Origin: a virus
Lineage: Duplodnaviria; Heunggongvirae; Uroviricota; Caudoviricetes
Virus record (IMG/VR): IMGVR_UViG_3300028833_000137
DNA length: 64,000 nucleotides
Strand: one strand, 5' to 3'
Both the position numbers and the translations under genes were made by a program. Every line of letters starts with the position of its first letter. Position 1 is the stretch's first letter. The notes below the pieces were generated by a model. It saw nothing but the letters and a program-made list of their open reading frames with translations. It had not been told where the DNA came from and ran no database searches. This document shows positions 37,430-37,565 of the stretch, in pieces.

Positions 37430-37565
37430 TATGGTGGGCTAGGAGGGATTTGAACCCTCAATCTCTCACGAGCAGCGGATTTTTGGTTCCCGATACGAGT
37501 GCTGCCCTCGCATAAATTCACTGGAAATCGGAAAAGTCCGCTATGTATGCCGTTCCATCACTAGC
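37430..37565 (-). tRNA. tRNA-like gene with perfect acceptor and T-arm enclosing about 135 nt (insertion of about 60 nt); anticodon not resolved
   Basis: Acceptor GGGCUAG/CUAGCCC 7/7, T-arm GAGGG-UUCAAAU-CCCUC, A73, CCA. Interior carries GAGGGCAGCACUCG, related to the GGGCAGyACC motif seen elsewhere. Confidence 0.35.

Follow-up and report, generated by a model that had tools for sequence, protein, structure and literature searches.

To our knowledge, the introns described in bacterial and phage tRNA genes are self-splicing group I introns, and tRNA splicing that depends on proteins is considered to belong to archaea and eukaryotes. The stretch of tailed-phage DNA analyzed here (IMG/VR record IMGVR_UViG_3300028833_000137, Caudoviricetes; 64,000 nucleotides (nt), referred to in full as the window) contains a tRNA-Leu(UAA) gene that is very probably split within its anticodon loop, between U34 and A35, by a 50-nt insert with the shape of a miniature tRNA. 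The nearest counterpart by location is the group I intron of the cyanobacterial and plastid tRNA-Leu(UAA), which lies in the same gene and at the same U34/A35 site as 20 of the 40 Leu copies of the insert family, including the one in the window. This intron and other bacterial tRNA group I introns are, like the insert, located in the anticodon loop and occur in both intron-plus and intron-less alleles. The two types of element nevertheless differ in build. Group I introns have at least 200 nt and a P3-P9 core, end in G, and require a U before the 5' site that is paired with G, whereas the insert has 50 nt, two helices and a tRNA-like fold, ends in A in all copies (ACCA, or ACAA in two copies), and is preceded by C, U or A depending on the site. 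The Rfam model for group I introns (Intron_gpI) and those for hammerhead, twister, pistol, hatchet and HDV-like ribozymes gave no match in the region 37300–37750 at E values up to 10.

Archaeal and eukaryal introns of the bulge-helix-bulge type are also short, occupy variable and non-canonical positions and are gained and lost among relatives, and they share with the insert the probable removal by proteins or ribonucleoproteins and the need for a ligase. They are defined, however, by a 3-4-3 bulge-helix-bulge, whereas the 5' site of the insert is at the first pair of a 7-base pair (bp) helix and the 3' site is 4 nt past it, and their hosts are archaea and eukaryotes rather than bacteriophages. 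No splicing endonuclease of the EndA/Sen family was found among the 44 open reading frames (ORFs) scanned in the 64-kb window, the contigs of relatives reaching about 170–180 kb. By analogy, tRNA-like processing signals seem closest to the insert in working principle: in mascRNA of MALAT1, mitochondrial tRNA punctuation and the C4 RNA precursor of phages P1 and P7, a tRNA-like fold with an end of the CCA type recruits RNase P and sometimes RNase Z, and the longer transcript is cut at both edges of the fold. The flanks of these signals are not re-joined, whereas those of the insert are tRNA halves that need ligation. The sealing step, and only this step, has a parallel in T4 anticodon-loop repair (PrrC, Pnkp and Rnl1), in which a phage ligase restores the loop of a U34 tRNA such as tRNA-Lys(UUU); there the break is made by a host defence nuclease and nothing is excised, whereas in the window the phage would carry the break as a built-in feature of its gene. 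The YrlA RNA with its Ro protein (Rsr) offers a further likeness, a tRNA-like module with a T arm beside a gene that, in the window, encodes a DUF2828 protein presumed to be Ro/TROVE-like; YrlA, however, ends in a Ro-binding stem, whereas the ends of the insert form an acceptor stem. A literature search found no description of these inserts, although many papers in subscription journals were outside its coverage and an earlier description is possible. The insert is apparently a member of an undescribed class of tRNA intervening sequences shaped like mini-tRNAs.

The tRNA-Leu(UAA) Gene and Its Insert

The gene occupies positions 37432–37567 of the minus strand and comprises 136 nt, including an encoded CCA, as established by reading the sequence and with ARAGORN. 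A sequence-only reading of the window had placed a 136-nt tRNA-like gene at 37565–37430. The element is on the minus strand, and its length is correct, as are the acceptor GGGCUAG/CUAGCCC, which is paired 7/7 and followed by A73-CCA, and the T arm GAGGG-UUCAAAU-CCCUC, but the positions are off by 2, and the extra internal sequence, put at about 60 nt, is exactly 50 nt (37533–37484). Read from 37567 to 37432, the gene is GGGCUAG-UG-AUG(GAACGGCAUA)CAU-A-GCGGA-CUU(50 nt)AAAA-UCCGC-(long variable arm)-GAGGG-UUCAAAU-CCCUC-CUAGCCC-A-CCA. Exon 1 (37534–37567) contributes the 5' strand of the acceptor stem, a D arm with a 3-bp stem and GG in its loop, the 5' strand of the anticodon stem (GCGGA) and loop residues C32, U33 and U34. 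The insert (37484–37533) follows U34, and exon 2 (37432–37483) resumes with A35, A36, A37 and A38 and continues through UCCGC, the long variable arm, the T arm and the 3' strand of the acceptor stem to A73 and CCA.

ARAGORN calls no contiguous cloverleaf at 37432–37567, and the Rfam tRNA model (RF00005) has no match there at its gathering score or at E values up to 10. A standard cloverleaf with other boundaries, which had been named as the finding that would overturn the original proposal, is therefore not obtained under any choice of ends. Given the unspliced 136-nt sequence alone, ARAGORN reports that nothing was found, whereas after deletion of 37484–37533 it calls an 86-nt type II tRNA-Leu(UAA) with the features expected of a leucine tRNA (A73, a long variable arm and GG in the D-loop). 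In its intron mode, the program reports a tRNA with a 50-nt intron at this gene and one with a 105-nt intron at a sister gene (see below), with a boundary that is off by 1–2 nt. The identities that follow from these shifted boundaries, Phe(aaa) and Arg(tct), were rejected, as were initial readings of the two anticodons as Lys(UUU) for the Leu gene and Arg(UCU) for its sister. The same four grounds apply in each case: the long variable arm, the rule that the insert ends after CCA, homologues at other sites and the existence of intron-less alleles.

The boundaries of the insert are fixed by the three insertion sites occupied in the family, by the intron-less alleles and by the absence of both isoacceptors from the remainder of the tRNA set: among the 27 tRNAs called in the window by ARAGORN and Rfam there is no second Leu(UAA) or Lys(UUU) gene. 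For neither amino acid does the phage use another codon more often: in the ORFs of the window, UUA accounts for 44% of the Leu codons and AAA for 67% of the Lys codons. The exact 50-nt insert together with its flanks is present in five independent metagenome contigs, which excludes an assembly artifact. That the element is a tRNA-Leu(UAA) gene with 50 nt inserted between U34 and A35, and that the insert has these boundaries, can be taken with high confidence.

The insert comprises two helices. The 5' strand of P1, UUCCGAU (37533–37527), is followed by a 16-nt linker, UUCCAGUGAAUUUAUG (37526–37511), that carries the sequence CCAGUG; by P2, formed by CGAG (37510–37507) and CUCG (37499–37496) around the loop GGCAGCA (37506–37500); by a single U (37495) between the second strands of P2 and P1; and by the second strand of P1, AUCGGGA (37494–37488), the residue A (37487) and CCA (37486–37484). 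All of these elements are on the minus strand. Covariance models were built from four copies and later from 21, and the insert of the window scores 64.6 and 62.1 bits with models R1 and R2. The family as a whole has a P1 of 7 bp, a linker of about 16 nt with CCAG(U/A)G, a P2 of 4–5 bp with a 7-nt loop, 0–1 nt before the second strand of P1, and A-CCA; the loop variants beside GGCAGCA are AGCAGCA, GGCAGUA and GUCAYCA. Pairing is retained in 97% of the cells of P1 and P2, and compensatory double changes are found in 10 of 11 pairs (7/7 in P1 and 3/4 in P2). The covariation score is 1.09 and 0.98 in two alignments, as compared with 0.26 for shuffles, of which 0/500 reach the observed value, and 0.06–0.16 for slid controls. 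Both the 7-bp stem and the 4–5-bp stem with its 7-nt loop are therefore backed by covariation in the two alignments.

The spacing within the insert is also constrained. In all the aligned copies that were measured, 11 nt separate the C that closes the loop (GGGCAGCAC) from ACCA, and the loop-to-tail spacing matches that of tRNA positions 61–72 followed by N73-CCA (12 nt, then N73-CCA). At all three positions in the anticodon loop, the insert starts with the first pair of P1 and ends directly after CCA, indicating that its own structure, rather than a particular site in the tRNA, sets its edges; the exon residues that flank the junctions are free to differ. As judged from these comparisons of sequence, the fold is that of the top half of a tRNA, an acceptor-like stem stacked on a T-arm-like hairpin, with the linker standing where a tRNA has its D and anticodon arms. 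The insert retains exactly those parts of tRNA that are read by end-processing enzymes, namely the acceptor stem, the T arm and elbow, the ruler distance and RCCA. The linker and the loop may also be in contact: CCAGAG accompanies the loop GUCAYCA in three copies from different tRNAs and sites, and CAGU accompanies GGCAGCA elsewhere, a pattern that hints at a tertiary pair (U-G to A-U), the sample being small and the copies possibly of shared ancestry.

The Insert Family and the Variant T-loop

The sister gene, tRNA-Lys(UUU) (32022–32202, minus strand), is split at 34/35 by a 105-nt insert (32064–32168) of the same family, with the arrangement CUCAGU...UGG-GGCAGUA-CCA...ACUGGG-A-CCA. Deletion of 32168–32064 leaves a 76-nt tRNA-Lys(UUU), and contig L001 contains an intron-less tRNA-Lys(UUU) between tRNA-Gln(CUG) and tRNA-Ser(GCU), the position of the interrupted gene in the window. 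Together with the covariance models, three DNA-pattern scans of IMG/VR and of JGI/ENA metagenome contigs identified 48 distinct copies of the CCAGUG/GGCAGCA type, a distinct copy being defined as a distinct combination of insert and flanks. Among them are copies from five contigs with the same sequence as the window and from several contigs of the human gut. The homology of the two inserts in the window and the number of copies elsewhere bear out the earlier suspicion of a recurring inserted module.

When the model match, from the first nucleotide of P1 to CCA, is removed, 46 of the 48 copies yield a tRNA that spans the junction and has a 7-nt loop; the identities are Leu(UAA) in 40, Gln(UUG) in 2, Ile(UAU) in 1 and CUA suppressor in 2, and in one the model boundary is shifted by 1 nt. 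In L004 the restored loop has 8 nt, except when ACAA is taken as the tail; L071, for which ARAGORN makes no call, is by eye a CUA-suppressor tRNA. Among the called tRNAs, the insert is at 32/33 in 16 copies (C/UUAAAA), at 34/35 in 22 (CUU/AAAA) and at 35/36 in 8 (CUUA/AAA), and the loop CUUAAAA is restored at all three sites only if the insert is taken to end after CCA. Intron-less alleles have the junctions predicted in this way. At the position of the interruption in L004, its close relative L003 has GACUUAAAAUC; the anticodon arm of the window is found without interruption in L012 (AGCGGACUUAAAAUCCGCUG); and L008 and L009 are further intron-less alleles with the predicted junction. With such alleles in close relatives, the insert appears to behave as an intron that is gained and lost.

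The loop of the inserts is not always of the GGCAGCA type. A 70-nt Lys insert in L006 has the loop UGCAAUU, and the inserts of Gln(UUG) genes (L010 and L011) and of an Ile(UAU) gene (L001) have the canonical T-loops UUCAACU and UUCAAAU. Amber-suppressor (CUA) tRNAs with an insert at 35/36 were observed in L071 (4470–4710), L204 (1682–1731) and L259 (1078–1126), suggesting that phages with a reassigned stop codon are also among the carriers of the family; in L071, the T-loop of the exons themselves is the variant GGCAGUA.

Outside these contigs the family was not recovered. The 50,697 deposited phage genomes contain no near or informative match, distant BLAST hits showing similarity in the T arm only, and an exact 24-mer of the insert is absent from IMG/VR. 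In bacteria and archaea (one genome for each of 185,579 species), there are 32 pattern matches, of which none is in a tRNA and none is convincing by covariance model. The family consequently looks confined to uncultivated large phages from samples of the gut or rumen type. A weak covariance-model match on the plus strand of the window (57857–57903) is antisense within a coding region and was taken as a chance match. Apart from this family, a second type of insert was seen in tRNA-like genes (L061, 519–769; L065, 12781–12900; L117, 5236–5505; L129, 12342–12593); it has 37–69 nt as reported by the intron mode of ARAGORN, lacks a CCA tail and has a AACAGCAA core in a hairpin. In at least one copy, that of L065, the insert appears to separate the D arm of a tRNA-Asn(GUU)-like gene from its anticodon arm.

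Four sites on the minus strand of the window, and none on the plus strand, have the core GGGCAGYAC (32079, 37499, 50130 and 50525), as compared with 0.32 expected by shuffling; 0/100 shuffles reach 4. That this core is shared, as the sequence-only reading had noticed, is correct, but it is not in itself the mark of an inserted module: it represents a variant T-loop with its closing pair. The evidence for this comes from the site at 50130, which had been regarded as an mRNA leader and is instead part of a stand-alone, previously unannotated tRNA-Cys(GCA) gene with no insert (50115–50190, minus strand). This tRNA is non-canonical, with U73-CCA, and is missed by both ARAGORN and Rfam; no Rfam family matched in the region 50050–50600. 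Its cloverleaf, assigned by eye, consists of the acceptor GCGUCCU/AGGACGC, the D arm CCG-AAUCAGCAAA-CGG, the anticodon arm GUGGU-CUGCAAA-ACCAU and the T arm GCGG-GGCAGCA-CCGC, and its D-loop has CAG where GG is expected. An orthologue in L003 with the T-loop AUCGACA is called as Cys(GCA) by ARAGORN without alteration, and the tRNA of the window is called once its T-loop alone is exchanged for UUCGAAU. The orthologues in L002 and L006 have no encoded CCA and are followed by a terminator. Since GGCAGCA serves a stand-alone tRNA-Cys, it is a variant T-loop of real phage tRNAs, in which it is paired with a CAG D-loop, and the hairpin of the insert is correspondingly a T arm. By analogy, the CCAG of the insert linker is probably the equivalent of the D-loop.

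The second supposed mRNA leader is that at 50525. This fourth copy of the motif (GGGCAGUAC) is located in a tRNA-like remnant (50510–50590, minus strand) directly after tRNA-Ile(UAU), with acceptor-like ends and G-CCA, a D-arm-like hairpin and a stem with a 10-nt loop. The remnant has no T stem, no ARAGORN call and no relatives, and its assignment as tRNA-His or another tRNA was rejected for the lack of a T stem; the motif may be a chance occurrence here. The original proposal of an interrupted tRNA with a recurring module was thus right in essence and wrong with respect to the leaders, and is partly supported.

Possible Routes of Insert Removal

The elbow of tRNA is gripped by RNase P, by RNase Z and by the CCA-adding enzyme, each of which measures from there to the acceptor end, and mimicry of tRNA by other RNAs recruits RNase P (PMC4810234). 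The RNase Z enzymes of Thermotoga maritima, of archaea and, with Co2+, of Bacillus subtilis cut CCA-containing precursors right after CCA; the archaeal enzyme accepts precursors without D, T or anticodon arms if an acceptor stem is present, and RNase E is able to make the CCA end directly (PMC7479834). We propose that the insert would be handled as a tRNA nested in a tRNA. Host RNase P would cut at the 5' edge of the insert, so that exon 1 ends in a 3'-OH; a second cut, directly after the CCA of the insert, would be made by RNase E or an enzyme of the RNase Z type and leave a 5'-phosphate on exon 2; and an ATP-dependent RNA ligase of the phage (41632–42282) would seal the anticodon loop to CUUAAAA. 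ATP-dependent ligases of the Rnl type join a 3'-OH to a 5'-phosphate without healing, so that no end healing would be needed with the predicted cuts. The spliced exon junction is predicted to be GCGGACUU-AAAAUCCGC, with CATAGCGGACTTAAAATCCGCTGCTCG as the sequence of a spliced read, and the freed mini-tRNA would perhaps be inert or perhaps have a role of its own.

The proposed ligase, which is encoded on the minus strand 4 kb upstream of the interrupted gene, has 216 residues and an Rnl2-like nucleotidyltransferase domain (PF09414, 6e-17; PHROG annotation, RNA ligase) and matches the structures of T4 Rnl2 weakly. It is a candidate, on the basis of its domain, for the joining of the exons. Ligases are also encoded on other intron-bearing contigs (L001, L004, L006, L361/L299 and L389/L298), and L056 has a different ligase, with an OB-fold and PF09414, 11 kb from its interrupted tRNA.

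Taken as a whole, the reading of an interrupted tRNA-Leu(UAA) with a mini-tRNA insert that is removed by RNase P, RNase Z and a ligase is the best explanation of the locus, with a probability of about 0.5. The enzymatic route taken by itself is proposed tentatively, and the broader suggestion, a third way of tRNA splicing in which a mini-tRNA intron is processed by host end-processing enzymes and a phage ligase and the freed mini-tRNA might serve the DUF2828 protein, is a possibility of a similarly provisional kind. Several observations weigh against the proposal. The occurrence of splicing, the positions of the cuts and the type of ends that they leave are inferences from sequence. The loop GGCAGCA differs from the T-loop consensus UUCRANY, so that recognition by RNase P is not guaranteed, and the A-CCA tail, otherwise invariant in the family, is ACAA in two copies (L004 and L065). 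The ligase of the window resembles Rnl2 and not Rnl1, the known sealer of anticodon loops, and T4 Rnl2 prefers nicks in duplex RNA. A ligase was not shown on most of the distant intron-bearing contigs, where the protein-pattern scan, which reaches only relatives with at least 55% identity, makes the test of co-occurrence uninformative. The metallophosphoesterases encoded in the window would suit a pathway with end healing instead. RNase Z of the B. subtilis type is normally inhibited by CCA under Mg2+ (PMC7479834).

A pathway with end healing is the substance of the first alternative, in which the insert is a true intervening sequence and a dedicated endonuclease of the phage or its host would read the CCAGUG linker, the GGCAGCA loop and the ACCA tail and leave 2',3'-cyclic phosphate and 5'-OH ends, to be healed by a phage phosphoesterase and kinase and joined by the ligase, or to be joined directly by host RtcB, in the manner of T4 anticodon-loop repair or archaeal splicing. 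The window does encode a PIN-PhoH protein and an RNA ligase as well as two metallophosphoesterases, no known family accounts for many of the ORFs close to the tRNA arrays, and the linker and loop are conserved far beyond the needs of simple tRNA mimicry. The exact tRNA ruler (12 nt and N73-CCA) and the family members with canonical T-loops point instead to the enzymes of tRNA end processing, and the ORFs scanned include no polynucleotide kinase or splicing endonuclease family. We consider such an endonuclease unlikely.

It is also conceivable, and compatible with removal by the end-processing enzymes, that the mini-tRNA is the main product and the tRNA gene its carrier and processing platform, the product being an analogue of Y RNA that acts with the DUF2828 protein or a decoy for host toxins that attack tRNA acceptor ends. 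The core of the insert is more conserved than the tRNA exons around it, and bacterial Y RNAs (YrlA) carry a tRNA-like domain and adjoin the Ro gene. The DUF2828/DUF7788 protein of the window (43966–45498, minus strand), annotated as an RNA-binding protein in Bacillus phage Tsamsa, has homologues in 18 of 49 intron-bearing pattern loci as compared with 4 of 134 others, and in five loci (L061, L211, L239, L253 and L268) the homologue is 100–160 nt from the interrupted tRNA and has 38% identity to the copy in the window. However, Bacillus phage PJN02 has a DUF2828 gene beside an ordinary tRNA array with no such insert, so that the linkage may be to tRNA arrays generally. The Rfam model for YrlA (RF02553) gives only 13.8 bits against a gathering score of 69, in a match that spans 37377–37482 and not the insert, and another RNA motif near DUF2828 genes and tRNA arrays, a stem with AACAGCAAUU, is an equally good candidate for the partner. 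This role for the mini-tRNA is judged slightly less probable than the dedicated endonuclease.

Retention of the insert would mean either that a small selfish DNA element, with hairpins at its ends, has inactivated the gene or that the gene yields a 136-nt tRNA-like RNA that does not decode. Splicing is, as noted, a matter of inference, the covariation of the stems could also reflect a DNA hairpin, and the presence/absence polymorphism in close relatives suggests mobility. Of the 49 intron loci, 12 have an HNH endonuclease gene close to the interrupted tRNA, as compared with 1 of 134 others; the HNH gene of the window (36519–37280, minus strand) is about 70 nt downstream of the pair formed by tRNA-Leu(UAA) and tRNA-Leu(CAA), and may be a homing endonuclease that spreads the intron-plus or the intron-less allele. 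Against retention, the two parts of the loop, at each of three insertion sites, always add up to 7 nt and to the expected anticodon, as in a canonical loop, the exons remain perfect cloverleaves across very divergent tRNA-Leu sequences, and the interrupted genes read the commonest Leu and Lys codons and are the sole such genes in the array. The insert is always in the orientation of tRNA transcription, and its spacing is that of the tRNA ruler and not of a transposon end. Retention is accordingly improbable on these counts. A tiny self-cleaving or self-splicing ribozyme of a new class, with the CCAGUG linker and GGCAGCA loop as its core, would account for about 15 strictly conserved unpaired nucleotides and would have a precedent in the ribozymes that phage tRNA regions can hold, such as the theta HDV-like ribozymes (PMC10879173), but is very improbable, given the lack of any match to an Rfam ribozyme or intron family even at E values up to 10, a size of 50 nt with two simple helices that is far below that of any known self-splicing intron, the ordinary T-loops of some family members and the explanation of the supposed core as T-loop and D-loop equivalents, since it is also found in the stand-alone tRNA-Cys.

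If removal by RNase P, RNase Z and the ligase is correct, the widespread tRNA-shaped inserts of 45–105 nt in phage tRNA genes would constitute a new class of intron, spliced by a route assembled from universal enzymes of tRNA end processing and a phage RNA ligase. Phage RNA ligases would then have a housekeeping function beyond the repair of damage by host anticodon nucleases, and the maturation of the tRNAs that the phage uses most (Leu-UAA, Lys-UUU, Gln-UUG, Ile-UAU and amber suppressors) would depend on a phage enzyme. Since standard finders miss the Leu-UAA, Lys-UUU and variant-T-loop Cys tRNAs here, phage tRNA repertoires, and the arguments on codon usage that are based on them, have been undercounted.

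Genomic Surroundings

The window is part of a large AT-rich phage genome (35.5% GC) with two tRNA arrays, and its genes include those for gyrase, DnaB, DNA ligase, PIN-PhoH, RNA ligase and the DUF2828 protein. A drum RNA (RF02958; 37599–37695, minus strand) is immediately upstream of tRNA-Leu(UAA), as it is in L003, L004 and L006, whether the gene is interrupted or not. The tRNA-Leu(CAA) gene (37352–37428, minus strand) starts 3 nt downstream of the interrupted gene, a gap that makes a common precursor probable. Like the drum RNA, two further structured RNAs are located inside the tRNA arrays, both on the minus strand: a ROOL RNA (34597–35190, 329 bits) and a DUF3800-XI RNA (53077–53124).

Among the tRNA arrays there is a set of minus-strand genes with the appearance of an RNA-repair system (41632–50086), comprising the RNA ligase, the DUF2828/DUF7788 protein, a metallophosphoesterase (46440–47042) and an SPFH/Band-7 protein (49112–50086). 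The PIN-PhoH protein (22327–23595) and a second metallophosphoesterase (16140–16988) are encoded elsewhere in the window.

A recurrent RNA-like module was noted at 52240–52340 and 31170–31245 (minus strand) and also in Bacillus phage PJN02 (L143, 17800–19900). It has a closing stem (AGGCAC...GUGCCU or AGACGCC...GGCGUCU) with A(A)ACAGCAAUU just inside the 5' strand and matches no Rfam family. In the tRNA array of PJN02 beside DUF2828, the sequence GACAC-NNN-ACAGCAA occurs at least 5 times, some of the copies flanking pieces that resemble permuted tRNAs. The module could be a Y-RNA-like partner of the Ro-like protein. The window also encodes a protein of the xanthine/uracil permease family (19926–21209, minus strand; PF00860, 9e-62), an unusual auxiliary gene for a phage.

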